Part shown: piece by piece, positions 3,266-52,344 of the stretch
How positions within the stretch are numbered: position 1 is the first letter of the stretch
Layout of the letters: the number at the start of each line of letters is the position of its first letter
Assembly (NCBI RefSeq): GCF_000372725.1
Contig: NW_005201381.1
Location: 245,953-309,952 of the forward strand
Length of the DNA: 64,000 bases
Origin: Emiliania huxleyi CCMP1516
Lineage: Eukaryota
Reading direction: 5' to 3'
Position numbers and translations under genes: made by a program
Notes under the pieces: model-generated
Seen by the model: the letters and a program-made list of their open reading frames with translations, nothing else
The model's database searches: none
What the model was told of the DNA's origin: nothing

Positions 3266-5006
3266 ATGACCACCTTGTTGGTGCAGACCCCGGTCGACCG
3301 CCCTCACCTGCGACTGCTTCTCTTCCCTCACGCCGGTGGCTCTGCCGCCGCGTACGAAGGCTGGCACGACGCGCTCGCGTCGCGCCTCCCCGTGCCGGTC
3401 GAGGTCTGGGCGGTCAGTCCTCCCGGGAGAGGCGCCCGAGCCGGCGAGGCAGCCTTCCCCACGGTGGCGGCGCTCGCCCAGGCGGTCCTCTCCGAGCTGG
3501 TGCGACTTGAGCTCCACCTCGCACCGCTCGCCGTCTTTGGCCACTCCCTCGGCGCCCTCACCGCCTATGAGCTCGCCCGGAGGATGGTAGACGCACGCCT
3601 CCCGCCGCCAGTCTGCCTCTTTGCCTCGGCGCACGAGCCGCCCTCGTGCGGCATGCCCGAGGCGCAGCGCGGGCTCGCCTCCCTCAGCGACGCCGCGCTG
3701 CTCCGCGCCCTCGCGGCCTTCGACTTCGTGCCGGTGGCATCCTTGGAAGCGGACGCCGCCGACGCCGCCGAAGTGGCGGTGATAGCGCCGCTGCTCGCCC
3801 CGCTCCGCGCCGATCTTGCCATGCGCGAAGCGTACCTCGACGCCGTCGCCGCCGGCACCGCACCGCCGCCGCCGCCCTCGCCGACGTTGCCTCTGCCTGT
3901 CTATGCAGTCGGCGGCGCTGCAGACGCCGCCGTGGACGCGGCGTCGCTGCAGCGGTGGGCGGCGCTGGGCAGCGGCGGCGGCGGGTGCACCCAGCTGCCG
4001 GGGGGGCACTTTTACCTGCACAGCCGGCTGGGAGGCCCCTCCCTCGCCCCGCTGCTCGCGCTCGTCGCCTCGAAGATTGCCGTCTGTCTCGCCCCGGTGC
4101 CGGCCTCTGTCCTGTGCGGCCCGCCCCTCGAGGGAGCGGTGGGGGCGGCGGTGGGGGCGGTGGGGGCGGCGGATGCGGCGGAGGGGGCGGCGGAGGGGGC
4201 GGTGGGCGTGGAGGCGCCGCCGGTCGAGTCCCTGTCCCGGGACACGACACGTCCGGGACATGTCCCGTACGTGCACGAGCTGGTGTTGCGCTGGGCCGCC
4301 GCGACGCCAACCGCCGCCGCCATCGTCTCCGAGGTCGGGGGGCGGCTCGAGGCGGTGAGCTACGCGGAGGTGCGCGAGGTGGTGCACGCGCTCGGCGGAT
4401 GGCTCGTCTCGCACGGCGCGGCGCCCCGCGCGACCGTCGCCGCCCTGCTCGAGTAAGCTGGCTGCAGATGCAGAAACAGATCCGACTAGCGCTCCAGACA
4501 GCGCTCGAGGGGACACGTGCTCCGCCTGCGTTCTCGCGATCCGCTGGACGCAACTTGCGCAAGCGCTGCACTCGCCTCCTCCTCTCCTTCCTCCTCCTCC
4601 TGACTGCGGTGGACTCGCAACGCAGGCACCGCGCTGAGTCTCTCCTCGCGCAGCTCGCTGTCGGCGCAGCAGGTGCCTCCGCCGGCTTGCAGACCGAGTC
4701 CCGCCCTCTCCGCACCGCCGCACCGTCACGCAGCGCCACGTTCTTCCGCCACGCAGCGCCACGTTCTTCCGCCAGAGACGCACGCGTCTTGAACCCCACC
4801 CACCCACCCACCCACCCCCGCCCCCCCTCCGGCGCCCGCCCGCCCAGGCGCCGCATTCTTCCCGCTCGAACCCCACCTCGGCCCGCGCTCTCTCGCGCAG
4901 CTGCTGGCGCAAGCCACGCCGGTCGCAAGACTCACCTCCGCCACACACCGCGGCCGGCTGCCCGAGGACGGCACGCCCACTCTCGACTTCGATCGCCCGG
5001 GCTGGC

Positions 5007-5037
<31 letters not shown>

Positions 5038-5402
5038 GCCGCCGCNNNNNNNNNNNNNNNNNNNNNNNNNNNNNNNNNNNNNNNNNNNNNNNNNNNNNNN
5101 NNNNNNNNNNNNNNNNNNNNNNNNNNNNNNNNNNNNNNNNNNNNNNNNNNNNNNNNNNNNNNNNNNNNNNNNNNNNNNNNNNNNNNNNNNNNNNNNNNNN
5201 NNNNNNNNNNNNNNNNNNNNNNNNNNNNNNNNNNNNNNNNNNNNNNNNNNNNNNNNNNNNNNNNNNNNNNNNNNNNNNNNNNNNNNNNNNNNNNNNNNNN
5301 NNNNNNNNNNNNNNNNNNNNNNNNNNNNNNNNNNNNNNNNNNNNNNNNNNNNNNNNNNNNNNNNNNNNNNNNNNCTCTCAGGTCGCACGGCCCCCTGTCT
5401 GA

Positions 5403-5493
<91 letters not shown>

Positions 5494-8400
5494 CACCATC
5501 TCCCACCCACTCCACCCCTGCTCTCGACCGCACCAGGCGGCGCGCCCACTCTGCTTCGGCCAGACGGCCATCATTGTGCCGGACGAGGCGCCGGCCCAGC
5601 CCTCCGATTCCCCGAGATTGAGCCGCGAGATTCCCCGAGATTGCCCGAGGTAGGCGCTGGTCGACCCGCCGCGCCTCGCCTCCCTGCTCGCCGAGGCGCG
5701 CGCCACGCGCATCCTGACGACCCCCTCGCTCCTCGCAACCTTTCTCGAGCTTGGCTGCCCGCCGCCGCCCGCCGCACCACCCGCCGCCGCATCGCCCGCC
5801 GCGCCACCCGCCGCCGCATCGCCCGCCGTGCCTCCCGCCGCCGCATCTCCGCTCGGCTGCTTGCGGCTGTGGACTCTGTGTGGCGAGGTCGCGCCGGCGA
5901 GCCTCGTCGAGCGGCACGCAGCGTCTCTGCCGCACGTGCAGCTCGTCAACGACTACTCCTCCTGGGAGGGGTGCGACGCCGCATACGCAGACCTCCACCC
6001 GGCCGCGCCGGACGCGGCCGCCGGCGCCATAGCGCCCGTCGGACGGCCTCCGGCTGGCGTCGCCATCGCCGTCCTCGACCCGGACTCGCTCGCCCCGGTG
6101 CCGCTGGGTTGCCTGGGCGAGGTGTACGTCCTCACGCCGCAGGCCTCACCCACCCCCCTAGCAAAGAGAACGCTGTCGACCGACCAGCCACTCCAGCCAG
6201 CCACTCCAGCCAGCCACTCCAGCCAGCCACTCCAGCCAGCCACTCCAGCCAGCCACTCCAGCCAGCCACTCCAGCCAGCCACTCCAGCCAGCCACTCCAG
6301 CCAGCCACTCCAGCCAGCCACTCCAGCCAGCCACTCCAGCCAGCCACTCGAGAGGACACGCACTCGGCTGCACTCGGCTGCCTCCAGCCTGTAGCACTCG
6401 CTGTACTCGCAGCCCTCCTGCTCCGAGTACACGGCACGCGGCCGTACTCCCGCCCCGACAATGTGCGAGCCCTCGCCGCAGGCCTTCACTGGCTACGCCG
6501 GCGCCGCCGACCTGACCACCGCGAGACTGCTCCCCGCGCCGCCAGAGCTGTGCGCGCTGCTGCGCGCGTCTCTCGGGCCCAACAGCCTCACCCTCACCCT
6601 CTGCGCCGACCACGCAGCCGAGGTGCGCGCACAGGCCGACCGGGACGCGGCCACCGCCTCCGCCTCAACCGCCGCCTCCGCCACCGCCTCCGCCTCAACC
6701 GCCGCCTCCGCCACCGCCACCGCCTCCGCCGCCACCGCCGCCACCGCCACCGCCTCCGCCGCCTCCGCCTCTGCCTCAACCGCCTCCGCCGAGGCGCCGC
6801 CGTCTCCGCGCGCCGTGCGAGGCGCGGCGGGCGGCGAGGCCGAGCTCCTCCTCTATCGGACGGGCGACCTTGCGCGGCTCCTCCCGTCTGCGGCGGCGGG
6901 CGGCGAGGCGAGCGTGCAGGTGCTCGGCCGACGCCCGCCCGACGGCTCCGTTGAATTAGTGTATGCGTTCATTCATTCACAAGTTCATTCATTGCTTGGC
7001 CGACGTCCGCCCGACGGCTCGCTCTCGTGACGGCCTGTGTGACTCGGCTGCACGACCTCTGGCTCAGGTGCTCGGCCGGCTCGACTCGACCGTCAAGATC
7101 CGCGGGTACAAGGTCGGGCTGCCCTACGTCGAGGCGAGATCCGCCGAGATGCGCCGAGATGCGCCGAGATGCGCCGAAGAGGCGCCGAGAGGCGCCGAGA
7201 GGCGCCGAGAGGCGCTGAGAGGCGCCGAGAGGCGCCGAGAGGCGTCGAGAGGCGCTGAGAGGCGCCGGGCCGACTCACCCTTCCTTCCGCCACACCCCGC
7301 CAGGCGTGCATCTCGGCTCTGGCCGGCGTCGGCCGCTGCGCCGTCGTCGCGCTGCTCGACGAGGCAGACGAGGAACGGTTGTCCCTTCCGCGAGGTGTTT
7401 CTTTTTCGACGTTTTTCTTTTTGGGGGGAGTAGGCGACCGGGCAGCCATCCTCGCTGGTGGCACACGTCTTCCCGGACGCGGCGGCCGCCGCCGCGGCTG
7501 AGTCGGACGAGCCGAGCTGGCTTGCGGCGGTGCGGGAGGCTGCGCGCGCCGAGTTGCCGCCGCACGCGCTGCCGCGCCACTGGTTGATCACTCCGCAGCT
7601 CGGCGGTCCGTGGCCTTCCCCCAACCCCAACCCCAACCCCACCCCACACACACCCACACACCCACACACCCACCCACACACCCACACACCCACACACACC
7701 CACACATCTACACCCACCCATCTACACCCGCCCACCCATCACCCACGCGCAGACAAACCGCCCTGCGCCCCCACCAGGAGTTGAATAGAAGAAAACCTGG
7801 TTGGCTCTGGTGGACGCTATGTAAAGATGGAATACCCTGATCTCGGTGCGCCCCCGTGCGCGCCGCCACCGGNNNNNNNNNNNNNNNNNNNNNNNNNNNN
7901 NNNNNNNNNNNNNNNNNNNNNNNNNNNNNNNNNNNNNNNNNNNNNNNNNNNNNNNNNNNNNNNNNNNNNNNNCCCCCCCCCCTCCCTTTAACCCTTCCTC
8001 CTTTGGCCCCCCCCCCCCCCCACCACCACCACCACCACCCCCATCGCCCACTCTCCCTCCCCAGGCCTCTCGGCCGCCGAGTCCAAGAAGCTCGACCGGC
8101 GGTCGCTACCAAGGCCAAACCTCTCCCTCGCCTCGCTGCGCGCGTCGGCCGCCGCGCCGCCCGCCGCCGCGTCGGCCGACGCCGCCGCGCCGGCGGCCGA
8201 CGGCAGCGCGGTGGACGCACTCGAGGGTGATATGCTCCCCGTGTGGCGCTCGGTGCTCGGCGTGCCCGACGTCGAGGGCGGCGACAACTTCTTCGACCTC
8301 GGCGGCCACTCGCTGCTCGCCGCCCGACTCGTGCGCGAGATACAGGCGAGATCACCCGAGATGCGCCGAGATGCGCCGAGATGCGCCGTTTGGCTCGTGC

Positions 8401-11400
8401 GCGAGCTGCGGGCGAGGTGGTCCGAGCTGGTGCGAGGTGGTCCAAGCTGGTGCGAGATGGCCCGAGGTCCGCCCGAGCCTGAGGCGCGAGTGCGGGGGTG
8501 CAGGCGCGCCTCGCCATCTCGCTGACGGTGCTCGACCTCTTCGACGCGCCGACGCCCGCCGGGCTCGCGCGCGCCGTCCGCGCGAGGGCAGAGGGCGCCA
8601 CCCCGCGTGCCGCGCCGGCCGCCGCTGCGCCTCTGGATGTTGCCTCGCGCGAGCTGGCCGTGGTCGGCATGGCGGGCCGGTACCCAAAGGCGGGCGGCGC
8701 CGGCTCCCCTCGGCTCCCCTCGGCTCCTCTCGGCTCCTCTCGGCTCCTCTCGGCTCCTTTCGGCTACTCTCGGCTCCTCTCGGCTACTCTCGGCTACTCT
8801 CGGCTACTCTCGGCGTGTGCTCCCAAAGGCGGGCGGCGTCGAGGCGCTGTGGAAGATGCTGCGCGACGGCGGCCGCGGGGCTGCCGATCTCGGCGAATCT
8901 CGGCGGGTCTCGGCTCATCTCGGCGAATCTCGGCCGGTAGGCGGTCACGGGCTGACGATGTGGAGCCGCGCGCAGCTCTTCGCCAAGGGAGTGGGCGCGG
9001 ACGTGTTTGCCCACGAGCGGTTCGTGCCCGCCGCGTATTTGGTGGACGGCGCGGAGCGGTTCGACGCGGCGTTTTGGTCGCTCTCGCCACACGAGGCGGC
9101 CATCATGGACCCGCAGCATCGCCTCTTCCTCGAGGTTGCGTGGCAGGTGACACTTCCTAGCCACTTTCTAGCCACTTCCTAGACACTTCCTAGACACTTC
9201 CTACTTCCAGCCTCTTCCTCGAGGTTGCGTGGCAGGCCGTCGAGCACGCGGGGCAATCAACGATGACTAATCAATCACCATTCATCATCATTGTGGCAGG
9301 CCTTCGAGCACGCGGGGTACGCGCCGCTCTCCGGCACGCCGGAGCGGACGGCGGTGGTTGCGGCGCCCGGCATCGACGGCTACATGCACCACCACCTCGA
9401 TGGCGCGCCGCTCAAGGACGCCCTCTCCCCCGGCGACATCTTCCTGGGCGAGGTTGGCTCCGAGAAGGACCGGCGCCGCTAGATGCGCGAGGGGACTTCT
9501 CTCTTCCAGCAGCCGCACACCTCCCTTCCAGCAGCGACCCTGACTCTGGTTGTGCCCCCGCACCGCGCTGCAGGACTACATCGCGACGCGCCTCTCGTAC
9601 GCCCTCGACCTGATGGGCCCCTCCCTCACCGTCAACTCTGCCTGCTCGTCGGGGCTGCTCGCCGTCGCGCACGCCGCCGCGCCCCTCCTCACTGGCGAGG
9701 CAGACCTCGCCCTCGGCGGCGCGTCGGCGCTAACCTTCCCATCGCACGGCTACGTCTTTGAGGAGGGGCTGGTCGCCTCCATCGACGGCAAGGTGCGAGA
9801 CGCCCCCGCCGCCCGAGCGAGAGGCCTCCCCACATCTCCCCACATCTCCCCACATCTCCCCGCCGCCCGAGCGAGAGGCCTCCACCACCACAACGTGCGT
9901 CAGCGGCGCCTCGCCAGGGTACCTCACTGCACCTGTCCACCTGTCCACCTGTACACCTGTGCACCTGTACACCTGTACCTGTGCCTGTCGCCCCCCCCCC
10001 CCCCCTTCCCCTTCCCCCTTCCCCCCACCCCCCACCCCCCTCCTCCGGCCTGGCACGCCTGACGCACCCCTCGCGCGTGCGTGGGAAAAGGTGCGCCCCT
10101 TCGACGCGGCGGCGCACGGGACCGTCTTCGGCGACGCCGTCGGCGCCGTCGTCCTCAAGCGTGCCGCCGACGCCGACGCCGCCGCCGACGCCCCTCTCGC
10201 GAGGCTGCTCGGCTACGCGGTCACCAACGACGGCGCCCGCAAGGCGGGCTCTCTCGTCCTCCTAGAACCCTTCTCGGACCCTTCTCGGAGCCGTCTCGGA
10301 ACCCTCTAGGCTGGCTACGCTGCCCCGGGGGTGGCCGGCCAGCGCGCGGCGGTCAGCGGCGCGCTCGGCGTGGCAGGAGTCGCGGCGTCGTCGCTCTCGT
10401 ACGTCGAGTGCCACGCGACTGGCACGCTCATCGGCGATGGCATCGAGGCGCGCGCGCTCACTGACGCGCTCGCCGCCTCGGATGCCGGCGCCGCCGCCGC
10501 CGCGTCGCGCGGCACCTTCATCTCGCTCGGCTCAATCAAGGGCAACCTCGGCCACGCCAACGCGGCTGCGGGCGTCACGGGGCTGCACAAGGCGTTGCTC
10601 TGCCTCTCACGCGCGGAGCTCGTCCCGACCGCCCACTTCGCCAAGCTCAACAGGAACGTCCACCTCGCCGGCACTCCGCTCGCCGTGCACCAGGCCGGGG
10701 CTGTGCCGTGGGCGAGGCACACCTTCTCGGAACTTTCTCGGAACCCTCTCGGAACCTCCTCTAGGCCGGGGCTGTGCCGTGGGCGAGGCCGACAGGCGTG
10801 CCGGGAGCGGCCAGCGAGGCGGCGCGCCGCTGCGGCGTCTCCTCCTTCGGCATCGGGGGCACCAACGTGCACATGATCCTCGAGGAGCCGCCCCGCGCCG
10901 CGGGCAAGCCCGCCGCATCCGCCGCCGCCGCTGCCGCCGCCGCATCCGCCGCCGCCGCCGCCGCCGCCCCGACGCGCCGTGCCGTGCACATGCTCTGCGT
11001 CTCGGCAAAGTCGGGCGCCGCGGCGCGACGCGCCGCGGAGGCGCTCGCGGCGGCCCTCGAAGGCGAGGGGGCGCCGCCACTCGAGCACGTTGCGGCCCAG
11101 CTGCTCGGCGGCCGGGAGCTCTTCTCCAAGCGCGTCGCCGTCTCCGCCGCCACGCGCGCCGAGGCCGTCGCGGCGCTGCGCGCCGCCGCCGCCGCCCCGG
11201 CCCCCGCCCCCGCCCCAGCGTCGCCATCGCCGAGCAAGAGCAGCAGCATGGTCGACCTCGAGTCGGCGGGCGGCGGCGGCGGCGGGGCAAGACGCCGGGG
11301 CAAGACGCCGCCGGTGGTGCTCCTCTTCCCCGGCCAGGGCTCGCAGTGCCCGCGCATGGGAGAGGGGATCTACCGCTCCGAGCCCGCCTACCGGCGGCAC

Positions 11401-14400
11401 GTCGACCGGATGTGCGCCACGCTGCGCCCCCTCCTCGGCTTCGACTTGCGCGAGCGGCTCTTCCCCGCCGCCGGCGCCGAGGACGCCGACGGCTTCCGCG
11501 CCGCTTTCGACGCGCCGACGGTGACGCAACCCGCCATCTTCGTGACGGAGCTCGCGCTGGGCCGCACGCTCGTCGAGGAGTACGGCCTCGCGCCCGCCGC
11601 CCTCGCCGGCCACTCGATCGGCGAGTTCGTCGCGGCGACGCTCGCCGGGGTCCTCCCCGAGGAGGACGCGCTCGCCCTCATCGCCACGCGCGCGCGACTG
11701 TCCGAGGAGGCGCAGCCGGGCGGCATGCTCGCGGTGGCGCTGAGCGCCGCGCGCGCGGCCGAGGTTGCGGCGATGCCGTCGCACCGCGGCAAGGTGTGGC
11801 TGGCCGTGCGCAACAGCGGCGGCCGGACCGTCCTCGCCGGCGACGACGACGCGCTGCTCGCAGTTCAGGCGCCGCTCGACTCGGGCGTCTCACTCCTCAA
11901 CTATGAGATCGCTCACCACCAGCGCACCACCACAGGCGCTGCTCGACTCGGAGGGCGTCCGCTCGCGCCGGCTGCCGCTGCCTCGCGCCTACCACACGCC
12001 CCTGATGGAGTCGGTCGCTGACGGCCTCGCCGCTGTCCTGGCGCGCGTGCGGCTCGCGCCACCAAAGCTGCCGTTAGCGTGCAACGGCGGCGGCGGCTGG
12101 ATGGAGGCCGCCACCGCCACCGACCCGTCGTACTGGGCGGGGCACGTGTCGCGCGCGGTGCGGTGGGACGCAAACATGGACCTGCTCGCGGCGCTCGCCA
12201 AGGAGGCCGGAGGAGACGGCTTGCTCGCGGTTGAGGTTGGGTCGGGCTCATCCCTCGCGCCGCTGCTCGCCGAGTGCACCGCCGACGGCGCGAGCGCCCT
12301 CTCGGTCCTCTCGACGCTGCGCCACCCTCGCGAGGACTGGGCCGGCGGCGCCGCCGACGAGCGCGTGTTTGCCGACGCGCTGTGTGGTTTGTGGGAGGCG
12401 CGCGCGCCGCTCACGCTGCGGCGCGCGCGGCACGGCTCGCGGCGGTACGCCGCGGCGAGGCTGCCGGGCTACGCGTTTGAGCCGGCCGTGCACTGGCTCA
12501 AGCCCGAGCGCTCGATGTACGTCCGGCCGACGGCGGAGGAGGTGAGCGCCGCGCAGGCGGCGCTCCTCGCCGCCGCCGCGCCGCCCTCCAAGTTTCCGCT
12601 CGACCCCGCCGGCCTGCCGGCGCTGCAGCCGCTGCGCCGCGCGTCGCCAGGCTCGCGGTGGGTGTCCGCTTACTGCCTCGCCTTCGCGGGCGGCTCGACG
12701 GCGGCGTTCGCGGAGCTCGCCGCCGGCGCGCCCGAGTGGATGGAGGTGGTTGGCGTCGAGACGCCCGGCAAGGGCGCGCTCGCCGACCACACGTGGCCGG
12801 GCGAGGTGGCGCCCGCCGGGATGCAGGCCGGCGCCGCGGCCGAGGCGGAGGCCGAGATGATCGAAGAGCTCGCCGCGCGCATCGCGGCGGACGCGGCGGG
12901 CTCGGCGATCGTCCTCGTCGGCTGGTCGATGGGAGGGATGCTGGCTGCGGAGGTCGCGCTCCACCTGCAGGCGGCGGGCTCGCCGCCGCACCTACTACAC
13001 GTCGCCGGCCGCATGGCGCCCGGCTCCTTCGTCGCCGCTTCGGAGGCTGACCTCGACTCGTACTCACTCGCCTCGCCCGAGGTGCGCGCGTCGGCCGCGT
13101 ACCGCGAGTGGCTCCTGCCGACGCTGCTTGCCGATTTGCGCGCCGACGGGCGCGCGGAGCGGAGAGTCGCCGATGCGCTCCGCCGCGCCACCGGCGGCGG
13201 CAGCGGCGCGGCGCTCGATTGCGCGCTGCAGATCTGCTGCGGCGACTCGGACGCGTCGTTCCCGCCCTCCGCCGCGGGCGGCTGGCTGTCGCTGACGTCG
13301 GGGAAGCGCAGCGTGCACACCCTGGCGGGCGGGCACGACATCCTCACCAGCGGATCCGCGGAGCTGATGCAGTTGCTGCTGCGGCGCCTGCTGCCGCAGG
13401 CGCCGCTCTACGCAGTGCGGTGGGACCGACTGCCCTCGCGCGCCGGCGAGAGCGAGGCTGCCGCCGAGGCGGACTCGGACGACGAGGCTCTCCACGCGGC
13501 CCACGGGGAGCGAGCTCCGCCGGCGTCACCGACGCCGCCGTCGCCGCCGGCAGCTGCGCCGCCGCCGGCCGCTGCCCCGCCGCCTCGCGCTGCGCCGCCG
13601 CCCACCAAACCCGCCGTGCCGCCCGCCGCGCCGCCCCGGCTGCTTCGGCTCGGCGCGGACGAGGTCGGGCTGCGGCCGCGCGACGCGGCGGCGCTGCGCA
13701 CGACCCTCGGCTTGCTCGTGTACATCGAGCCACAGGAGGCGCCGGCGGCGCAGCGCGCCCAGTGCGCCGCCCTGCTGCGCCTGCTCCTCGCGGCCGCCGC
13801 CGCCGGCGGCGGGCGGGTCGTCCTCGTCTGCAGCGCAGACACGCGCTCGGCGCTGGCGGCCGGCGCGTCCAAGGCGGCGCCGCTCGAGATGCCCGAGCTG
13901 TCGGTGCAGCGCCTCTTTCTCCCCGCCGACGCCGACCTGCTCGGCGCCGACCGGTCGGTCGGCTCGCGGCTCGGCGCCATTCGGCCGCTGCTCGACGGCT
14001 GGGTGCGGTGGATCGCCGCCTCGTCCGCCGCGCGGCGGGAGGAGTGCGACTTGCTCCTCGACGCGGCGGGCGGGCCGCCGCGCGCGCCCCGCCTCGCCTC
14101 GCTGCCTCCGCCTCCTCCCGCCGACGTGCCCGCTCTCGACCCCGCCGCGTCCTACCTGGTCACCGGCGGCTCGGGCGGGCTGGGCGGCGCGCTGGTGGAG
14201 TGGCTGCTCGACGCGCAGGGCGTGCCGCCCGCGCACGTCGTGCTGCTCTCGCGCCGCGGCGCGCCGCACCCGCGCGGCGTCACGTCGCTCGCTGCCGACC
14301 TCGGCGATGCCGACTCGCTGCGCGGGTGCGCCGGCCTCGCGGCGCTCGGGGCGGCGCTGCCGCGGCTCGGCGGCCTCTTCCACCTCGCGGGCGTGCTCGA

Positions 14401-15352
14401 CGACGGCCTCATCTCGAACCTCGACGAGGCGCGGATCGGCTCCGTGGTGGCGCCAAAGGCGGGCGTGCTGCCGCTGCTGCGGCAGCTCGCCCGCGCCTCC
14501 GCTTCGCCGCCATGGGTGATGCTCTCCTCCTCCACGTCGTCGCTGCTGGGCTACGCGGGCCAAGCAAACTACTGCGCCGCCAACGCCATCTTTGACCACG
14601 CCGCGGCCTTCGGCCTGCCGCCGCCGCCCGCCGAGCTCGGCTCGCCGCCGCGCGTCCTCACCGTCAACTTTGGCCCGTGGGGCGAGGTCGGGATGGCGCG
14701 CGAGGGCACAAAGGCGCACGCGCTGTCGGTGGCGAGTGGCGAGACGCCGATGGCGACAGGCGCCGCCATCGCCTGCATAGCGCACGCCGTCCGCGCCGTC
14801 GGGGCGGGCGCCGCATCGCCGCCCGCCGCCTCGCCGCCCGCTGCCTCGGCGGCCTTGAGCTCGGCATCTCCTCTCGCTGCCTCGGGACCCTCCTCGCCGG
14901 CGCCGGCGCCGCACCCGGAGCAGGCGGAGCCCAACCTGCAGTTTTGCATCGCCGACGTGTCTTGGTGGCGATCTCCGTGGCCCGACCACCCGCTAGTGCA
15001 AGGGGTCGTCCGCCGCTCGCCGGCGGCGGTGCCGTCGGCCGCAGTCGTCGCCAGCGGCGGCGGCGCCGCCGAGGAGGGCGGCGCGGAGGCGGGCGGCGTG
15101 CTTGCGCCGGAGCTGGACGCCGAGGCGAAGGCCGCCAACGGGCGCGCGCGCGCCGAGGCGTGGATGCGCGGGCGGCTCAACGAGTGGGAGCTGGAGACGC
15201 GGCTCGCAGAGCTGGGCCTCGACTCGCTCGACCTGGTGCAGCTGCGCAACGCCTTCAACAAGCACTTCCGCACCGAGGTGCCCCTCTCGGTCTTCTCGAA
15301 CGCCAACCAGACCCTCGCCGCGCTGCTCGGCCGCGTGGGGGAGCTCATCTGA
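3266..15352 (+). CDS. Spliced hybrid NRPS-PKS, TE-A-T-KS-AT-TE-KR-ACP (BurA-like), interrupted by two assembly gaps
   Basis: Motifs appear in order across exons. TE1: FPHAGGS, GHSLG, GGHFY. A: LVNDYSSWE, GEVYV, LYRTGDLAR, GRLDSTVKIRGYKV. T: DNFFDLGGHSLL. KS: VVGMAGRYP, MDPQHRLFLE, NSACSSG, ECHATGT, KGNLGH, GVSSFGIGGTNVH. AT: LFPGQGSQ, GHSIGE, RAYH. TE2: AFAGGS, GWSMGG, GGHD. KR: VTGGSGGLG, AGVLDD, GQANYCAAN. ACP: LGLDSL. Stop TGA at 15350-15352. Confidence 0.93.
6183..6348. repeat. Intronic tandem repeat of ccagccact/ccagccagccact units
   Basis: Directly visible array inside an A-domain intron. Confidence 0.9.
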
Positions 15353-23989: not shown

Positions 23990-25085
23990 TCACTCTTTGC
24001 TCAGCTGGTTGGCGCACCGGTCAAAGCTCGTCTCGAGCTCGCCGTACTTCGCGACCCACGGGTGTGCGGGTGCGGAGATCTTGAGCTGGGAGGTGTACCG
24101 CCCGATCACCTCCGCCGGCTTCTGCAGCTGGTTGAGGCAGACCACCAGGTTGATGAGCGAGGTCGTGTCGTTCGGCGACTGCGACAGCGCCTCCTGCAGC
24201 AGCCTCTCGGCCTCGTCAAAGCGGCCCATGTGCATGTTGCACGAGGCCATCGCGTTGAGCAGCATGAGCGACATGTGGTACTTCTCGCCCAGCTCCTGGA
24301 ACTCGTACAGCGCATCCTGCGCCGTCTCGCCTCCCGACTCGCACAGGCTCGTCCACGCGTGCGAGAGCCTATGGGGAGCTTCCTAGAATGTTCCCTAAAA
24401 GGTTCGAGGTCAAGGGGGTCGTACACGTGTGCGAGAGCTTTGTCAGCGTGTCGTCGTCGTACTGCTCCTGCATCGACTTGACCTGCGGGGCGGGGCGGGG
24501 CGGGGGGGGGGGTCGGTGGCCCGGCGGGGTCACTGGGCGGAGGGGTAAGGGCGGGTCAAGGACGGGGGAGGGGGTCGAACGGCATGTGGCCTCTTTGGCG
24601 CAGGGCGCGGAGGAGGGCGGCGAGGCGGGGCGGGCAGCGCGCGCCAGCTTGCGCGCGAGGTCGGGGCGGTCCATTTGTAGGTAGATCTGGACGACGAGGG
24701 CCATCACGTCGATCTGCGTGGACTGGTGTGAAATCTTGAGCGCCTCCTTGTGGTCCCTCTCGTGCAGGAACACCGTCGCCGCCACGAGGATCAACTGCCA
24801 GTTGTCCTGCGCGGTCGCGTCCGTCAGCCACTCCTTGAGCTGCGCTACCACCGCCTCCTTGGAGACGCCCGATAGGTACGACGCGAGCATCTTGACCGCC
24901 TGCAGCGCGACCGGCGCCTGCGCCCCCACCTCGTCCATCACCACCCGGTGCTGCCCCTGCTCGATGAGCGCGCGGTACATGAAAAAGTCGCGCTCGGTGC
25001 TCGCGCCGAGGCTCATCGCCTCGCTGACCGCCTGCTGGTAGTTGCCCAGGTAGAGCGCGTTCCGCAACCCGTACAGGTCGCCCAT
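23990..25085 (-). CDS. COPE: Coatomer subunit epsilon, spliced
   Basis: MGDLYGLRNALYLGNYQQAV, VQIYLQMDRPDLA, MQEQYDDDTLTKL, EAERLLQEAL, PAHPWV. Confidence 0.92.
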
Positions 25086-26644
25086 CGCGGCGGAACTCTT
25101 GCGCAAAAAAAATTTCTCCTCACCTGCCTATAAAAATCGTAGATTTGCTCCGGACGAGACTGCCCGTGCCGCGGAGCAGCCGATATGCACACGAAGGCCG
25201 AGAAAGGCTAGGAGTACTTAACGAGTTCCGCGACCTACGCAGTCAAACCTGGGGGGAAACTGACCGCATGATGGCGGACTTCCGAAACCTCGGTCCTCGC
25301 TGAGCTCCTCTGACCGTTCTCGCTCCCCATCGAGCTCTTCACATTTTTGTGCCCGCTCTTAAGGCACAACAACGGGCACCTCCCTATGTGTCAGAGCGCG
25401 CACGAGTGGGTGAGTGTGCGAGCAATATCGAAAGATGGTGGAGGCCAGGATCGCACCACGGAAGCTCAATTTCCTCGCAATATAGAGAGTTGTGTTTGTC
25501 CTCAGATTGGACCAACAAAACGACAGTACTACTCTTCAGTGCGCGGGCCCACAATGCGACAAAACCGAAACGGTTGGTCTTCAAAGAAGTCCGTTACGCA
25601 CAAGCATGCGCGACTTGCACTCTTTCGTGCCGCTCGCTCGCCGGTGCGCGGCGCATGGCCTCCCGCGCGGCTCGCGCTCACTCGGCCTGCCTCCGCCTCA
25701 CGGCTGGCTGAGCATGCCATGGGTCCGCCTGGTGCGGCGCTGCTCGCTCGCTGCGCTGCACAAAGCTGCGAGAAGCAGGGTGGCCTCCTGAGCTTGAGCA
25801 TGGCGCAGCGCGGCTGCTGGTGCTCGAGGGCGGCCGTGCAGTGGCGTGAGGGCCTGATTGGTGGTGACCTCGTGCTGCATCAGCGTGCGCAGCATGCTCC
25901 CTCACCCGGTGCTGAGACATGCTGGTGGGCGACTGGCGCCAGCTTCTCAGTGCTGTCCCTGGCGTTGTGCAGCATGTCGCAATACTCCTGCTGCGCTGAC
26001 CGGCGCGCGGGGCGCGTCGTGCCGCGAGAGGAGCGAGAGGCTCGAGGCGCGCGGCTGTCGGTCAACCCTGCGGCGCATGCGCGCCGCCAAGGCTGCTCGA
26101 CAGGCGACTGGCATTGTGGCGACGCGGTCGCCGTTACTCCAACTTTGCTTTGCCGATCAAAAGCGCCGGTCCTTTCCTTTTTAGCCGCCGAAATTTAGCT
26201 TGCTGTTTTTTTTTCTTTATAGGCGTCTGCAACTTCCAAGCTGCGTATTCTTGTATTATCGTCGAGTAGTACAGGTACTTCGTGGGGGCAGGGTGTATTC
26301 TCGTAACATGTGCGTATTCTCGTATCACTGGCTCCGAGTAGAAAAAAGAAAGAAAATAGCTCCGAGTAGAGGGGGCGTTCTGCTGCTAGGGGAAACCTGG
26401 AGCGCGGAGCTAACCCTCGGAGACCCGTGTTTACTTTAAGGCCCTTGCCCTGCGAATGCGCACCCCCCCTAGCTAGGGGTCAGGGCTCTCTAGCCCGTAG
26501 CCCGATCCCGATCATCCGGCCCGCTGGGTGCGCTTCTGAGCTCCCCGGCCCTGGATGTGAGGCTGCCGACTGCACTCCAAGTGCTCCAAGTGCTCCAAAG
26601 AGCACAAAACCGAAGAGAATCTCTCTCAAAACCGAAACATTGGC

Positions 26645-27330: not shown

Positions 27331-27927
27331 CTATCGCTTCCCGTACAGCTTGATGTCCATCACGAGGTCGGGCTGGTATGGCCGGTTCGCGTTGCAGTAG
27401 ATGTTTTTGAAGCGCTGGAACGCGCCCTCACCCATGTCGCCCGGCCGCACCTCCCGCGGAGGGATGGGCCCAAAGCCGCCGCCGCACTCTTGGTACTGCA
27501 GCCCCGGCAGCGGGCGAGCGAGTCCCTCGTACGCGAGAGAGGAGGGGATGATGGCGCGCCGGACGCCGCCTGGCAACATCGGCGGCACGCCGCCGCCGCC
27601 CGCGACCGCCTGCTCGAGGCCCGGGATGGTCGAGCCGTCGCCAAGCGCCCACGCATACGGCTGCTGCCTCTCGGCTGTCGAATCGATCTTGGCGCCGTAC
27701 CTCGCACCCGTCGTAGACATGACGTAATCGATCACGACGCGGCACGGCGCCTGCGGCGCCGTGCCGCTGCCGACCTTTGCGTCCGCCCACTGCAGACCAT
27801 TCGACGACGTGGAGAACTCGAGCGCCGGCGTTGCCGCCACCGCCGCTGGAGTTGGCCGCATCGCAGGGCGGGCCGCGAGAGATGCCGCGAGCAGAAGCCG
27901 GCGGCCGAAGACCGACGCGGCGTGCAT
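27331..27927 (-). CDS. FKBP-type peptidyl-prolyl isomerase, probably plastid/thylakoid type
   Basis: SNGLQWADAKVGSG, VVIDY, IPGLEQAV, MLPGGVRRAIIPSSLAY, DLVMDIKL. N-terminal RR plus hydrophobic stretch. Confidence 0.88.
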   Translation of the reverse strand: MHAASVFGRRLLLAASLAARPAMRPTPAAVAATPALEFSTSSNGLQWADAKVGSGTAPQAPCRVVIDYVMSTTGARYGAKIDSTAERQQPYAWALGDGSTIPGLEQAVAGGGGVPPMLPGGVRRAIIPSSLAYEGLARPLPGLQYQECGGGFGPIPPREVRPGDMGEGAFQRFKNIYCNANRPYQPDLVMDIKLYGKR

Positions 27928-29619
27928 GTGAGATCAGTGAAGCCAGTCCAGTCGCACCTCCGGAAGTCCTCTAACATCACAACATGGAATTCCTACAGAC
28001 ACTAATGCTTTGGTCTTCACAACGCGCCTTGGTCCTCGGCTCCTCGCTCTGGTAAGGCTCACCAGAGCGACAGGGAATTCGACAGGAGGGCTAAAATCCG
28101 GAATATAGAGTAATAAGAGTCGACAAGAGGGTGCTCTCTCTATCTAGGCCGCGAAGACACCACACACGGTCTCCCTACTCATGCGCGGCTACTCGCTTAG
28201 TTGGTGTGGGTAAACGAAAGTACCGACCGTACTATCAGAGAAAAAGCCGGAAAAGACGCCGGCGGCAGTCCACGACGAGCCAGCCAGCTGCCGGCTCGCA
28301 CGGCAGCCTCTTCCTCTCGACCAGCCTCGGTCCGAAAAGCGGAAAAGCGGATCGCGCAGTCCGTTGTGGCTCGAAACGCGATGCCTCCGCTGGGAGACAC
28401 GGATGGCGCCGGCAGGAGACCTACCTATCCCCAGGGCCGCAGGGAACAGGGGAAAATGTATTTCAGACTCTTTATGCCTGTAGTGCCAGTGGCAGTGCGC
28501 GCCAGTTACAACCCAAGGGAGGGAGGGCAGGGAGCTTTGTGGTGCAGTGGGTTGCGGGCATTAAGAAAACAGGAGTCGGCGGCGCTTCGCGAACTGGCAC
28601 AGAAGGTTCGAGACGGCACGGATCTTGTGCTCCTATGCGCGGGAAGGGTTGAGTCCTGTCACGGCGATCTGCTGAAGAAGGGGATCCTGGCCGAAGCGGC
28701 GCAGCTCGAGGCCACCTCCAGCAAGAGGAAGCCGCGCTCTGATAAGGGCAAGCCGAGGGGTCCTCGGGGGCCCAGGGCTAACTCGGTGGAAACGGCGGCC
28801 CGCATGGGGTGCTGGCGACCTTCTACCTCCGGCACGCCTATGGACGGGACAGCCCGGGGCTGCATGAAGAGGACGGGGTGCTCTCCGCGAATGGGGGGGT
28901 GCTGTGTGCGGGGTGCGGAGAGGAGGCGCCCGGGCTCGGGGCGCGGGACGGGGAGGGGGATGGCGGAGAGGGGGGGGGGCGTGGGCGAGGAGGGGGAGGG
29001 GGGCGGTGGGGAGCGGGGGAGGAAGAGGGGGTGGGATCCGACAGAGGAGGAGGCGGTGGGGGTGGAGGGTGGGGAGGAGGGGGGCGTGGTTGGGGAGATG
29101 GGGGATCGGGGGGGGGCGGCCGGCGGTGCCTCCGCGGGGGGAAGAAGCGGGGTGTGCACAGCAAAGGGGGGCGGCGATTCAAAACGCTGAAGGGAAGGGA
29201 GGGCTGAGTGAGTCTGGCAACGCACACGTGTCGTAACGTCCACAAGTTGCTATGAAAATTCTACCGCCCGGCCAAGACCGCCCGCCCCCCTCCCCCCCCC
29301 CCTTTCCTCTCTGCCTCCTCCTCCACACAACGGAAGCACACACAGCACCACACGACCCCCGATGCTCTGATACAGGTGAAAGGCGGCGCTGTCTCTCAAG
29401 ATGGAAGCAGGAAGCTTCCATCCCGGCGGTGGTTCGAATCCACATGAGCCGAAGGTGAGGGGGAAGGTTTGCCTGAGATCTGAAGCTCACCCATTGAGGA
29501 AGTGAGGAGTTGCTCGGCTCACCCCGATCATGCCGAACAAGCTCCTCTTGTAGCTCGATCGGTCACACCGCCATCGCCGTCGGGGAGAGGGGGGACGACA
29601 CTGCTTCGGCAAGCGTGCA

Positions 29620-30207: not shown

Positions 30208-30337
30208 GCGAGGGAAAAATTCTGAATCAAAGCAAATAAAATTCTTTAAATGAGTGCGCGCTGCCCGTGCCGTGTCGTGCGAGGTAGTCTTTAAATTCTT
30301 TCAAGCAGAGTTGGCCCATTTAGTTCGAGTTGCCGGG

Positions 30338-30733
30338 ATGGCGGCAAGTGCGAGCGACCAGTCTGCCGCCGCGGTTTGCGATGCGGACGGCGTCTGCTGC
30401 ATCGTGCCGCAGGCAACAGATTTGGAGCAGCCGTCGAAGCCAGCGGGAGCTGTCTTGCCGTTGCTTTTCGGCGACGATTATTCGACGACGATCCTCAAGG
30501 ACGACGCTGGGGTCCAGCAAAGCGCCGGAGCGCTCGGTGGCAAGATCGTTGGCCTGTACTTCTCCGCAAGCTGGTGCCCCCCATGCCGCAAGTTCTCGCC
30601 GGAGCTTTCCAAGCTTCGCGCGGCGCACAGCGCCGATTTTGCCGTGGTCTTTGTCAGCTGCGACCGAAGCGAGGCCGAGATGAAGAGCTTTATCGGTCTC
30701 GCCGTGTGTTTGTCAAGCTTCCGCATGAAGTAA
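30338..30733 (+). CDS. Nucleoredoxin/tryparedoxin-like thioredoxin (3' exon uncertain)
   Basis: GKIVGLYFSASWCPPCRKFSPEL...VVFVSCDRSE. Confidence 0.8.
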   Translation: MAASASDQSAAAVCDADGVCCIVPQATDLEQPSKPAGAVLPLLFGDDYSTTILKDDAGVQQSAGALGGKIVGLYFSASWCPPCRKFSPELSKLRAAHSADFAVVFVSCDRSEAEMKSFIGLAVCLSSFRMK

Positions 30734-38927: not shown

Positions 38928-41934
<3,007 letters not shown>

Positions 41935-43383
41935 GCTCTAGAGGGTTCTTGCACAGCGCAGTGAGGGTTTTTTGCCAGAGCGCTCACACACAGCTGCTGC
42001 AGAGCAGTGGTTGACACCGATACTGTCCAGGCCTAAAGTCTGTGCAGGTTGTCGGGGACACGAAGTCGGAAGAGAAATTCGTGGTTTTTGGTTTTCTAAA
42101 ATCTCTCTCTCTCCGAAGCCGGCGTGAACACTTGTGACTTGAGCAAAAGACTGGAGAGGGTCGATTCCGCATGGTACGGGACCCCTCGATCGTCTCGCCC
42201 TCCCTCACTGGTGTGTTCATGGGGGGGGGTCATAACAAACACGGCGACAGGATCGAGGTGGCGTGAACACAACTAACTGACGGATCCGCTCCTGCCTGAC
42301 AGTGGCACGCGCCGCGGCCGCGGCGCGTGCCACTGTCTTTGTTTGTTTGAAGCTAAAAGTCGAATCAGAGCGGTGTCGGCGTTGTCCCCCGATTTCCTCC
42401 CACGGACCGCCCGTCTGGCACCGGCCGCTCCGGGACGCACGCCGGCGAAGCACCATCGAGCTGCTCCGTACGCGGCCCCGGCATCGCCTCCCCTGGCTTA
42501 GCTAGAATGAGAGATATTGTGCACATGGTCAGTCTCTACAATATACTCACTGACATTTTACCTCCCAGAGCTCGTCCCGGTCCGCCACGGCCATCCTCGG
42601 CCTCCGGAGGGCCCCCGCTGGGCCCCCGGCCGCGGGCGCGGCGCGGTGGGGCGGCGGCGTCACAAATCCGACCACAGAGCACCGGGACGCGGTCGGGCGA
42701 TTCGAGGCCCACTAGGCGTATGCATTGCCTATTCAGGGCTATCACCTGGACCTATCAACAGGCGCCTGCGGCGCCGTGGCCAGGAGCTGCTGTTCACACC
42801 TGCACAAACTTTCATAGTGGGCAGTATCGTTCAAAGGAACGCTGGTCAAAATCTTGACGCTGTTCACGCTTCACAGGTAAGTATAAGCGGAGCAGCTGAG
42901 TAGATACAGCTAATCCTTTGTGTGTTCACACCTGCAAGAGGTGTGAACAATAACGATTTCGGCCTTAGCCGTCGGTATGCCAATAGCGTTCTAGCCAAGT
43001 AGTACGCAGTTGGTTGGATTCCGAGGGTGTCCCATCACAAGTTCGGCTGTCGACAGACAAGAGTGTCCCTTTATAGTGCTTAGTCGACAGCACCCGCCTT
43101 GGCCTCCCTACCGTTAAGAAGCCTTTTACTTACTTACCCCTCTTTCGTTCGCCCGCCACGGTCGGTGAGCTTGCTTGCGCCTTGTTTGTTGCCGATGGCA
43201 GCCCATGTGGCGGACGGCATGCACTGGGGTGTTCATGGGGTCCCGTGCCATGCGGAATCGACCCTATCCCAGTGCTCAGTGCTGAGAAAATCAAAGAATT
43301 TCACAATCGAAGAATTCAAGGGGTTGGGGGGGGGGGGGGGGGCGCATATGTGTTGGAGACGGCACGCGCGTCCACCCACTGCG

Positions 43384-48765: not shown

Positions 48766-49149
48766 GCAGCGGCGGGGAGGCCGGGGAGCGTGCGGCTGCG
48801 GTCGAGGGACGAGAGCTCTGCCAGCCTGCCAGCGGAGGTGCCAGCGGCAGCGCTGCCACCCCTGAGCAGAGCGAGAGCCCTGACCCCTGTGAGCTGTGTG
48901 CCCTGAGCGACCCCCTCAGCCCTCTCGCTCTCGCGCGCCCGGCCTCGGCGCGGCCGTCGGGGCGGGGTGCTCGCGAGGATCTCGGGACGACCCTGGAAGC
49001 TGAGGTTCTTTTGGCATAGAACTAGAACGCGAAAGTCTCCTCACTCTTACGGACTTCCAACAGCCTTACTCTCTTGTCTCTAATCTAATCAACAGGGCGC
49101 TCAGTGGGGTGTGCGAAAACACAAACGATTATGATAATTAGCAGTGTCC

Positions 49150-50730
49150 TCATCCATTGAGCGCGCGCGAGTCGCTGAGGGAGCGCTCAAACGCCTCGAT
49201 CTCCTCGTGCAGATTGTTGAGGTTGCTGCGCGGCTCCCAGGTGTTGTGGTGCGTCGCCCACCTGGGGGGGGGGGAGGAGGGGGGAGGGGGGTCAGACCCG
49301 GCACCCGCGACGCCGCGCCGGCCGCTGCGCACCCCTTCCACTTGATTAGGTACTGAACCTCCCCGTCGTGCGACCGCACACCGAGGATGTCCTCCACCTC
49401 ATACTCGGCGCGCGAAAGCCGCCTCCGCCGCGGCGGTGGCGCGTCGCCATCGCGCTCTCCCTCGCCACCCCGGCCACCCCCCTGGCGCGGCGAGGTGGGC
49501 CCCGAAGCGGAGCTGGCGTCAGACGTCTGGTAGACGGGGGAGACGGCCTCGCGCCACGCCTCTATGCTCTCGCCAAAGTCGTGTCTGTGCTCCACCGTCA
49601 CCAGCCCCGTGGCGGGCCCCCGCGTCCCCGCGCTCCCGCCGCGCCCGCCAGAGCGCCGATCGCGGCCCTTGCGGGCGCGTGGGCCCGCGGACGCCGCCGG
49701 CTGATCGGTCGCTGAAGCGACGCGCCGCCGCGTGCACGCGTATGGGTGCGCGCCCACCCCATCATGCCGCACGCCGACGCTCAGCATGTGCGCGAGCGTC
49801 GGCTGGATATGGCAGATCATCTCGTTCTCCTGTGCCGAGTAGACGCGGCGCGCCTCTCGCGCCTCCTCGCGAGAGAGCTGGTGGGCCGGCGCGACGGGGG
49901 GGGCGGCCGAGGAGCAAGCGCCGCCCGCGTCTGCCGGCGCGCACGCGTCCGCCCTTCCGTCCTCGTCGCCGCCGCCGCCGCTGGCCGCCGCCGCCGCCGC
50001 CGCCGCCAGTGCGTCGGCGCGCTGCAGGTGCGGGTTGGTGTGCTGAAAGTGCTGCGCCTTGTAAAAGCTGGCCGAGGAGGGGTACGTGTAGACGAGAATC
50101 TGCGTCTTGCCCAGCGCGCGGCAGAGCTCCTTGAGGAAGTGCACCGTCAGGCGCGCGAAGCCCTTGCGTGTCATGCGCGGGTGAGTCGCGAGCAGCCGCA
50201 ACATCATTGTCGACGGCGGGCGCAGCGAGAAAGTAGCGGCGGTCACGCAGATGGGCGCGTCCGCCTCTGGGTGCTTGTAGTAGAGCACCACCGTGGTGGA
50301 CTCGACGTGCCGGATCACCTGCTCGCACGTAATGCCGCCCGCGAGCGAGAGGTGGTTCATGTCGCGATAGAGCTTGAGCGCCTCCAGCTCGTCCGCCTCG
50401 CTCTCCGCGACGCGCAATTCGAGCGGTCCCAGCGGGTCAAACATGTCGGCGAGCACGCCGATCGCCTCGCGCGCCTCCGCGTTGCAGCGGTGCGCATCGT
50501 CGTTCAGCCCGCGGAATTTGAGCCCGATGCGCTCGTACGACGATGATGCGGCGCCCCCCGCGGCGAGCGCTGCGCCGCCGTTGCTCGACGATGGCCCCGC
50601 GGGAGCGGCCGGCGCAGGCAGCTCGCCGGACGGATTGCGGCTGCGGTGAGGCCGCGACGCCGCCGCGCTCGCGGACCGCCCATCCTCCAGGCCCATAAGC
50701 GCGCAGAGCGCCGCCTGCGCGCGGAGAGCG
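49150..50730 (-). CDS. GNAT acetyltransferase fused to a C-terminal chromodomain (5' end probably in or beyond the gap)
   Basis: LRLLATHPRMTRKGFARL...SASFYKAQHF (GNAT); EYEVEDIL...QYLIKWKG|WATHHNTWEPRSNL (chromodomain). Confidence 0.8.
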
Positions 50731-52344
50731 GCGAGGCGGAGGGTGGGGTGGGGGGGGGGGGGAGGGAGGGGGGAGGGGGGGGGGGGCCTTACGGGCCCGC
50801 CAAGGGTAAGGCGGGGCGGGTAAAGCCGGGCGGGGCGGGCGGTCGGGGCGGTCTGCGCTTCCACCCCCTTCCCCTTTGAGCTCTGCAAAAAAAAATTATG
50901 GNNNNNNNNNNNNNNNNNNNNNNNNNNNNNNNNNNNNNNNNNNNNNNNNNNNNNNNNNNNNNNNNNNNNNNNNNNNNNNNNNNNNNNNNNNNNNNNNNNN
51001 NTCCCCTACGAGCGGCCTGTATTGCACCATAGGTCGTCGGCTTTGCCGACCGACGGGCGACGTGGACGGGACACAGCGACTCGAAGGGACGTGCGAGCCA
51101 CGTACCCGAACAAGCACTGAGAACGGGGCATTCCACCCGCACTGTTGCACTGGTGGGATAGGGTCGATTCCGCATGGTACGGGACCCCTCGATCGTCTCG
51201 CCCTCCCTCACTGGTGTGTTCATTGGGGGGGTTTATATAACAAACACGGTACAGGATCAAGGTGTACGCTGCTGAAGCAGTGCACCTACATAGTGCGGGA
51301 CCTGGGGCAGCAACCAACAACCTGGATGGGGTGATGGGGACGGGGTGCTGCTCAACCGGCGGCAACCAGCAGCGTTCACAGCAGTGTGCGGAACAGGTGT
51401 TGCAACCTGGTAAAGAACCCGCTCGCTGAGGGAGCAAGCAAGCCCACCCACGCTTATATAGTCACCATTCTTACAGTGGTGTAGCTTGCGCATCGGCTGC
51501 AGCCTCTGCTGGGGCGGAATGCGGAGTGATTCTGAGATCAGGTTAGTCGTTTCCCCTTTGGAGGCAGACATTTCAGAAAGCGAATCCCAGGCCGCATCTC
51601 CCCGCTCGAAGCGGGGAACCCGTCCCGGGCGCCCGCTGGAAGCGGGGGGGCGCCCGCTCGAAGCGGGGGCGCCCGCTCGAAGCGGGGGCGGCGCAGGCTG
51701 CCACCGCTGCCCGGGCGCGCCGAGCGGCGGCGGAGGGCCGCCCAGGCCACCACCAGTGCCTCTCCCACCGGCGGCGCGGCGGCAGTGGCGCCGACCGCCC
51801 CTCCATCAGCGGCGGCGCGAGGCTGTCGTCGGGACGCCGGCAGGTGACGCGCGAATAGGGTGCCACCGGACCGGCCGACGAGCACCCAGCGGAGCCGTCA
51901 TCGTGCATGGCGAGCCGAGCACCGCCGCGTCGCTTCTCGGCGCATTGGAGAGCAGAGGAAGCTGCTGGCGTCGCGGCTGGGATCGGCAGCGGCGCCAGCA
52001 GCTTTCTCGGATCTGAAGCGACTTTGAGCGCCGATCGATCGATCTGAGGGCTGACCGATGGGTGGCGCTGGGAGGAAGACCGCGCCACCCGTCGGCCAGC
52101 CCTCAGCTCCGCGACGGCGACTCGATAGTCGTGGCCGGCGCTCGGCTGCCACTCTAAGCTGTGCCGCCAGGCGCTCCTGGAACCGTGACGTCACTTCTTA
52201 TGGATGCGGCACTAGGGACGCCCAATGTTTTCGTAAATATAGAAGCCACTCTCTCGCGTGTGGAAGCCACGACTGCGTAGTCGTGCTCCCCCGGAGCACG
52301 CCATAGAGCCGCGCCGGTTGTGTACCGGGCGCACCCGCAGCCGT

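Follow-up and report, generated by a model that had tools for sequence, protein, structure and literature searches.

A BurA-type hybrid synthase gene in Emiliania huxleyi as a candidate gonyol synthase of haptophytes

A spliced hybrid NRPS-PKS gene around the adenylation domain

We analyzed a stretch of 64,000 nucleotides from Emiliania huxleyi CCMP1516 (contig NW_005201381.1, forward-strand positions 245,953 to 309,952; hereafter "the window", with positions counted from its first letter) for which an original prediction made from the letters alone had described an adenylation (A) domain at 4265..8110. These coordinates hold for the A domain but not for the full extent of its gene: the domain is housed in one spliced gene on the forward strand, with an ATG at 3266 and a stop codon that ends at 15352. 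This gene encodes a hybrid nonribosomal peptide synthetase-polyketide synthase (NRPS-PKS) of about 3000 amino acids that carries eight domains in one polypeptide, i.e., thioesterase (TE), A, thiolation (T), ketosynthase (KS), acyltransferase (AT), a second TE, ketoreductase (KR), and acyl carrier protein (ACP). The same order, TE-A-T-KS-AT-TE-KR-ACP, is found in BurA of Burkholderia thailandensis (PMC7496086, PMC9428774), and the only enzyme known for gonyol comes from a Burkholderia bacterium (PMC7496086). The features of the gene are as follows:

3266..15352 (+): whole gene, hybrid NRPS-PKS (Pfam, open frame, spliced contigs)
3266..4030 (+): N-terminal type II-like thioesterase TE-A (PF00975, E 7.6e-24; GHSLG 3539-3553, GGHF 4001-4012)
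4265..5045 (+): A domain, N-terminal part, exons to 4452, 4626-4672, and 4848-5045 (PF00501, weak, exon 1)
5046..5374 (no strand): assembly gap of 329 N that holds A3 and most of A4 (N count)
5537..6142 (+): A-domain core, exons 5537-5587 and 5654-6142, with Leu278, Thr299, Cys301, Asp322, Asp330, and Ala331 and the A5 motif NDYSSWE at 5948-5968 (PF00501, E 6.7e-11; alignment)
6482..8110 (+): A domain, C-terminal part, with YRTGD 6854-6868, KIRG 7095-7106, and SKKLD (Lys517) 8082-8096
8214..8560 (+): thiolation domain, GGHSL 8301-8315 (tblastn with BurA 814-853, E 3.6e-6)
8650..10900 (+): ketosynthase with Cys (SACSS 9637), His (HATGT 10412), and His (GHANAAAG 10550) (PF00109, PF02801)
11320..12400 (+): acyltransferase, GHSIG 11608-11622, RAYH 11984-11995 (PF00698, E 2e-27)
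12670..13360 (+): intramodular thioesterase TE-B, GWSMGG 12920-12937, GGHDI 13328-13342 (PF00975, E 2.4e-15)
14147..14700 (+): ketoreductase, GGSGGLG 14165, VLDDG 14393, YCAAN 14570 (PF08659, E 1.3e-24)
15190..15352 (+): C-terminal ACP, DSL at 15221 (PF00550, E 1.4e-8)

The domain order was established by Pfam matches on exons together with the open spliced frame. Pfam was run on 13 exon pieces, 5 of which gave no match alone, and recognized thioesterase, AMP-binding, ketosynthase, acyltransferase, second thioesterase, ketoreductase, and terminal carrier domains; the thiolation domain gave no Pfam match on its two exon pieces taken alone. Joined by coordinates, the exons keep an open frame on both sides of the gap, with 477 codons ahead of it and a further 2477 residues downstream. 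The gene span is covered by no single contig, and the full-length homologues P0136 and P0288 carry the same domains. A complete set of catalytic motifs was found across the domains of the gene, including the catalytic Ser and His of the intramodular TE (GWSMGG, GGHD) and the DSL of the terminal ACP. Low-complexity insertions are also present in the protein.

Outside the gap, we modeled 17 introns (11 GC-AG, 5 GT-AG, and 1 GA-AG), a donor mix that agrees with the usage of 56% GC, 40% GT, and 4% GA given for E. huxleyi (PMC4028052); the GC content of the window is 66.5% without Ns. Spliced contigs of the gene were found in all 8 public runs examined, which were guessed to be RNA though none is recorded as such, and the evidence lies in the spliced contigs, with depth unused. 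Among the joints listed, removal was seen for 11 of the 17 introns. The splice originally drawn between VPDE and ALVD (intron 5588-5653, GC..AG) was confirmed by contigs in 4 of 4 runs and again in 4 of 4 others, the joints 6134 to 6474, 7131 to 7302, and 7361 to 7432 were found in 4 of 4 runs, and 4452 to 4626 and 4670 to 4846 in 3 of 4, while 6919 to 7068 and 7602 to 8065 were placed by frame and homology. Most introns within 4453-11935 are made up of short tandem repeats and often duplicate the flanking exon ends, and some contigs retain introns. Inside an A-domain exon, positions 6636-6793 form an Ala/Ser/Thr-rich repeat with GC and AG at its ends; since contigs of three runs end at 6637, this stretch is possibly an additional in-frame intron, or else an artefact of the repeat.

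The gap at 5046-5374 was correctly recognized as hiding A3 and the start of A4, and its 329 letters are all N. On its downstream side, contigs in 3 of 4 runs extend 185-218 letters upstream of 5535; this sequence is not part of the window and was taken from runs whose source organism is the same or nearly so. The contig end before 5535 translates as EAVGVMFAWE and is followed by AARPL of the window, where BurA reads EGLNVFLAWECLRPL in an ungapped alignment.

An onium-type adenylation domain with a divergent pocket

The motifs RPLCFG (5543-5560), RILTTPS (5708-5728), and NDYSSWEGCDA (5948-5980) stand where the prediction had read them. The A5 motif is far from a chance match in a comparison of 941 A domains, which were gathered by similarity to BurA-type queries and are thus not a random sample: 828 carry [NQH]xYGx[TSA]E, 48 carry NxYSxxE, and 65 carry neither, and the 48 comprise the window, BurA-type proteins, proteins of the type of the fungal glycine betaine reductase ATRR, and a few fragments left off the tree described below. 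Pocket positions are given in GrsA numbering, with D235 and K517 also named in papers. The A4 loop of the window is three residues shorter than in canonical domains and lacks Asp, as in BurA; this loop Asp (Asp235) is present in 33 of 36 canonical controls and in none of 42 onium-type rows, and an acidic residue at 330 (Asp in the window) shows the reverse pattern (42 of 42 versus 3 of 36). Lys517 is kept. Canonical amino-acid NRPS A domains combine FDxS, with Asp235, and NxYGPTE, and the window has neither. The domain is therefore of the ATRR/BurA type as predicted, with its A4 loop without Asp, Asp330, and the NxYSxxE motif, and neither the amino-acid Asp nor a grouping with ordinary amino-acid domains, which would have spoken for a conventional substrate, was found.

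The pocket code of the window, over the ten positions that we take to make it up, is V-M-W-L-T-C-D-D-A-K, of which the contigs supply the initial V-M-W; as a check of the columns, the same positions in control domains give the expected Ser and Thr codes. The corresponding codes are VFWVFMADVK in BurA (P0126), VMWLTCDDVK in Prymnesium parvum P0288, VMWLLCSDVK in Scrippsiella P0294, and VFWL[IV]CLDVK in the ATRR-like proteins P0218, P0296, and P0298 (Meloidogyne, a transcriptome labeled "Chryso...", and Perkinsus). The BurA code is exact, or changed only at 331, in 11 of 11 bacterial BurA profile rows, and the window departs from it by F236M, V278L, F299T, M301C, A322D, and V331A. P0126 was identified as BurA by S90, S2023, and S2746 as given in PMC9428774. 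It has Gly at 606 and Asp585 at code position 330, and we infer that D585 is the acidic residue assigned to the sulfonium and published as D606 because a spacing of 34-35 residues matches that of W270 and E304 in ATRR. The supplement of the BurA study casts doubt on its own model of the A4 loop (PMC7496086). In this loop, the contig sequence upstream of 5537 has Gly just before Val-Met-Phe, a position occupied by Asn in nearly all relatives.

An intact aromatic cage, as the prediction would have it, is not supported: of its three positions only Trp239 is kept, with Met236 and Thr299 at the others and an additional Asp322. In terms of ATRR of Aspergillus nidulans, which was compared only by the residues named in 10.1101/559534, the cage F201/W204/W270 plus E304 corresponds to Met, Trp, Thr, and Asp, so that the F/W/W cage is down to one Trp. 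ATRR and ATRR-like proteins nonetheless share with the window the missing Asp235, the acidic residue at 330, RPL, and NxYSxxE. Among 17 close relatives of the window, Phe237 (16) and Trp326 (17) are conserved, and these residues may replace the lost cage aromatics.

Features shared with BurA are the shortened A4 loop without Asp235, Trp239, Asp330, Lys517, NxYSxWE, the catalytic Ser of both TEs, the DSL of the terminal ACP, and an LDD-type KR motif (VLDD in the window, TLDD in BurA), and identity amounts to 41% over 316 A-domain columns and 36% over 2359 columns of the C-terminal part. In contrast to BurA, the gene is eukaryotic and intron-rich, and its AT motif is RAYH rather than HPFH. ATRR, with its A-T-R-R architecture (R, reductase), reduces its substrate (10.1101/559534), whereas the window protein lacks the reductase pair and has KS-AT-TE-KR-ACP instead. 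The family likeness originally noted to fungal ATRR thus stands at the level of the ATRR/BurA type, but architecture, trees, and profile score all make BurA, not ATRR, the nearest characterized enzyme.

In a tree of 59 A-domain rows, built without four fragments shorter than 300 amino acids and without a second domain from any control protein, all onium-type rows separate from 20 canonical rows with a support of 99 by SH-like approximate likelihood-ratio test (SH-aLRT). A 35-row clade (99) unites the window with bacterial BurA and dinoflagellate proteins to the exclusion of three ATRR-like rows and P0213, and the window falls into a 14-row clade (100) with two Prymnesium proteins. The tree of 29 KS rows, which omits ten near-duplicate or partial rows and the split KS of P0292, agrees and places the window in a 10-row clade (100) within a 26-row BurA-type clade (98). 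Both the A and the KS domain thus appear to share descent with BurA; since the trees give no firm order of branching among haptophytes, dinoflagellates, and bacteria, we name neither a donor nor a direction for any transfer. Against profiles, the A domain of the window scored as follows, which is indicative only because the profiles differ in depth: 242 bits for bacterial BurA, 185 for the dinoflagellate clade, 165 for ATRR-like proteins, and 152 for canonical domains.

Searches of protein libraries returned full-length homologues from P. parvum, a Prymnesium metagenome assembly, Scrippsiella, Cymbomonas, and others. The closest are AB1Y20_015089 of P. parvum (P0288) and SGPRY_002309 of Prymnesium sp. 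(P0140), both annotated as hypothetical and placed in the window's clade with a support of 100; their A domains are 53-55% identical to that of the window. P0288 is full-length and its code matches at 9 of 10 positions, while the N-terminal TE of P0140 is missing from the annotation. BurA-like transcripts are widespread in dinoflagellates (PMC5725682, PMC8283056) and share the architecture, as in Scrippsiella P0294. Their proteins form a separate clade in both trees, with 34-35% A-domain identity to the window, and their pocket, V-M-W-L-x-C-[SD]-D-V-K, has Met236, Leu278, and Cys301 in common with it. A further full-length homologue, P0292 with the code VMWLYCSDVK, belongs to the green alga Cymbomonas tetramitiformis.

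Candidate function in gonyol formation and competing substrates

We consider it probable that the gene encodes a haptophyte gonyol synthase that would convert the sulfur osmolyte dimethylsulfoniopropionate (DMSP) and a malonyl unit to gonyol, a metabolite that is abundant in the ocean. This reaction is proposed because the window protein has all the parts for one extension and one reduction, and we infer both substrate and product by analogy with BurA: with a cage that is conserved only in part, a second Asp at 322, and a code that matches BurA at 4 of 10 positions, they do not follow from the pocket itself. In this scheme, the A domain would adenylate DMSP and load it onto the T domain, with Asp330 and possibly the extra Asp322 binding the sulfonium group. 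The AT would put malonyl on the C-terminal ACP, the KS would condense once, and the KR would reduce the 3-keto group, after which the internal TE-B would take the chain from the downstream ACP and release gonyol. TE-A would serve in proofreading.

The scheme follows BurA throughout. BurA activates DMSP with a KM of 0.15 mM, amino acids and the neutral thioether being inactive, and makes gonyol in E. coli (PMC7496086); its internal TE frees the product from the terminal ACP, whereas the enzyme can do without its N-terminal TE (PMC9428774). Surveys detected gonyol in every haptophyte and dinoflagellate examined but in none of 8 diatoms (PMC7221440, PMC8269262), and it is present in Prymnesium parvum, which carries the homologue P0288. 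In Gonyaulax, it is formed from DMSP and acetate (PMC7496086), and it has also been reported in Diplonema (PMC8611851).

Several points weigh against this assignment. The code agrees with BurA at only 4 of 10 positions and with ATRR-like proteins at 6 of 10, and the loss of cage aromatics is clade-wide, with Met236 in 17 of 17 close relatives, Leu, Thr, Met, Ser, or Ile at 299 in all 17, and Asp322 in 13 of them. Of the 185-218 gap-side letters, 30 were read, A3 lying outside this part, and the 6 of 17 joints not seen in contigs, including the one before Lys517, were drawn from frame and homology. Both trees come from quick searches with SH-aLRT support and without bootstrap. The match between gonyol and gene distribution rests on few named genomes and draws on surveyed haptophytes rather than this host itself, P0292 belongs to a lineage (Cymbomonas) for which we saw no gonyol reports, and no assay of a eukaryotic BurA-like enzyme was found in the literature consulted. 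Finally, the diatom ATRR homologue PtNRPS1 is reported to reduce tryptophan (PMC13194791). Because of this ATRR-type A domain, membership in the family is by itself no proof of an onium substrate. Overall, the original interpretation is partly supported.

The same single round of chemistry might instead act on one or more other onium acids, with a product deduced accordingly (e.g., carnitine from glycine betaine, a sulfonium analogue of carnitine from dimethylsulfonioacetate, or homocarnitine from beta-alanine betaine), and we regard this as rather unlikely, though it is the strongest of the alternatives. In addition to the closer match of the code to ATRR-like proteins, with Leu278 and Cys301 shared, it draws on ATRR itself, which takes glycine betaine with strict size selectivity and rejects DMSP (10.1101/559534), implying that the choice between C2 and C3 acids can turn on a few pocket residues; the A domain of BurA, too, accepts an ammonium analogue at a lower rate (PMC7496086). 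However, tree and profile place the domain with BurA rather than ATRR, the smaller side chains at 299 and 331 would make for a pocket that is roomier, not tighter, the distribution of gonyol fits that of the architecture, and a haptophyte-labeled transcriptome contains a separate protein of the A-T-R-R type (P0296).

Less probable by a clear step is that the reshaped pocket binds an amine with no methylation or only part of it, or else a larger acid, cationic or aromatic, which would make the product an amino-hydroxy acid outside sulfur cycling. Such a ligand would suit a pocket in which two cage aromatics are lost and Asp322 is added (13 of 17 clade members), and PtNRPS1 shows that the family includes a reported non-onium substrate (PMC13194791). 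Against this, the nematode ATRR-like protein P0218, which belongs to a family with an indirect link to glycine betaine (PMC11050029), also has no aromatic residue at 299, and the near-invariant Phe237 and Trp326 may stand in for the lost aromatics. We know of no such product from these algae.

We regard it as very improbable that the domain is the starter of a hybrid synthase for a common alpha-amino acid or a fatty acid, or that the gene is decayed: searches of the PDB by sequence and by fold match ordinary NRPS A domains best (for the predicted structure of homologue P0141, with an overall pLDDT of 67.6, ordinary NRPS A-T structures) and the protein has low-complexity insertions, but the Asp235 loop is absent, the clade is separate and supported, no fatty acyl-AMP ligase or acyl-CoA ligase is among the fold matches listed, and the frame is open with intact motifs and spliced contigs in 8 of 8 runs. 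As no onium-type domain was recognized among the matches listed, the PDB hits are merely the nearest solved relatives.

If the gene is indeed a gonyol synthase, the BurA-like transcripts of dinoflagellates, which have been described since 2014, would gain a likely role. A wider view, which we hold to be about evenly balanced between right and wrong, is that haptophytes and dinoflagellates share a BurA-type branch of eukaryotic megasynthases, its onium pocket rebuilt to contain two Asp and one Trp, that would be the main source of oceanic gonyol or of further chain-extended zwitterions, such as carnitine from glycine betaine in one step, and could serve as the genetic marker of a DMSP sink, one that also inhibits bacterial release of dimethyl sulfide (DMS). 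Levels of gonyol in surface particles go up to 2.5 nM (PMC8269262), and the compound can block bacterial release of DMS and methanethiol (PMC7221440). With an intact, transcribed BurA-type gene in a haptophyte and homologues in a named gonyol producer, an algal pathway becomes testable, and should DMSP turn out not to be the substrate, the new and conserved pocket code would still mark an unassigned zwitterion pathway in major phytoplankton.

What appears to be new is a BurA-type enzyme in a new lineage with a distinct, conserved pocket. In the literature consulted, we found no description of a haptophyte BurA-like gene and no algal BurA-like gene tied to gonyol, though subscription papers, theses, and supplements may hold such a link; the available parts of PMC13490583, PMC9359912, and PMC8611851 add no algal gonyol enzyme. 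A survey of algal PKSs gives, in its available part, no NRPS for E. huxleyi, and the two C-domain-bearing PKSs that it reports there are without A domains (PMC4661987). Genome-based searches for producers had already been proposed in the 2020 BurA paper (PMC7496086).

Genomic surroundings and related loci

We rejected the idea of a biosynthetic gene cluster at the locus since only housekeeping families surround the gene. The neighbor scan began with 462 candidate reading frames of at least 70 amino acids and, after filtering and additions, covered 207, a procedure that short exons would escape; it matched coatomer epsilon, FKBP, thioredoxin-like, SNARE, PPR, LRR, chromo, and PDZ families and one NAD-binding frame. 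Unlike at BurA, no DMSP-synthesis or tailoring genes were detected in these neighboring frames. Matches were located as follows:

23993-25127 (-): coatomer epsilon
27334-27933 (-): FKBP
30254-30730 (+): thioredoxin-like
40980-41937 (-): PPR
49104-50900 (-): chromo
54522-55802 (+): LRR

Searches beyond the locus yielded a few further proteins of interest. A search with exon 1 among longer proteins returned 14 thioesterase-bearing bacterial proteins and nothing useful. A plasmid of Eleftheria terrae (NZ_CP106953.1, L001:10477-24246) encodes a BurA-like PKS with the BurA pocket code that adjoins genes for a SET methyltransferase, a TauD dioxygenase, an aminotransferase, an aldehyde dehydrogenase, and a large thioester-reductase protein, and this locus may be a bur-like DMSP/gonyol cluster outside Burkholderia; a search with its A domain gave no named eukaryote among the 120 matches listed, which were mostly multimodule NRPSs. 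The haptophyte-labeled P0296 (1408 amino acids) is an ATRR-type A-T-reductase protein, and haptophytes may therefore carry both onium-type enzymes. P0213 (2449 amino acids) is a TE-A-T-KS-AT-KR-T hybrid without an internal TE whose A domain, with the code IFWLVNDDVK, lies outside the BurA clade near the ATRR-like rows and is possibly that of a glycine-betaine-extending synthase.

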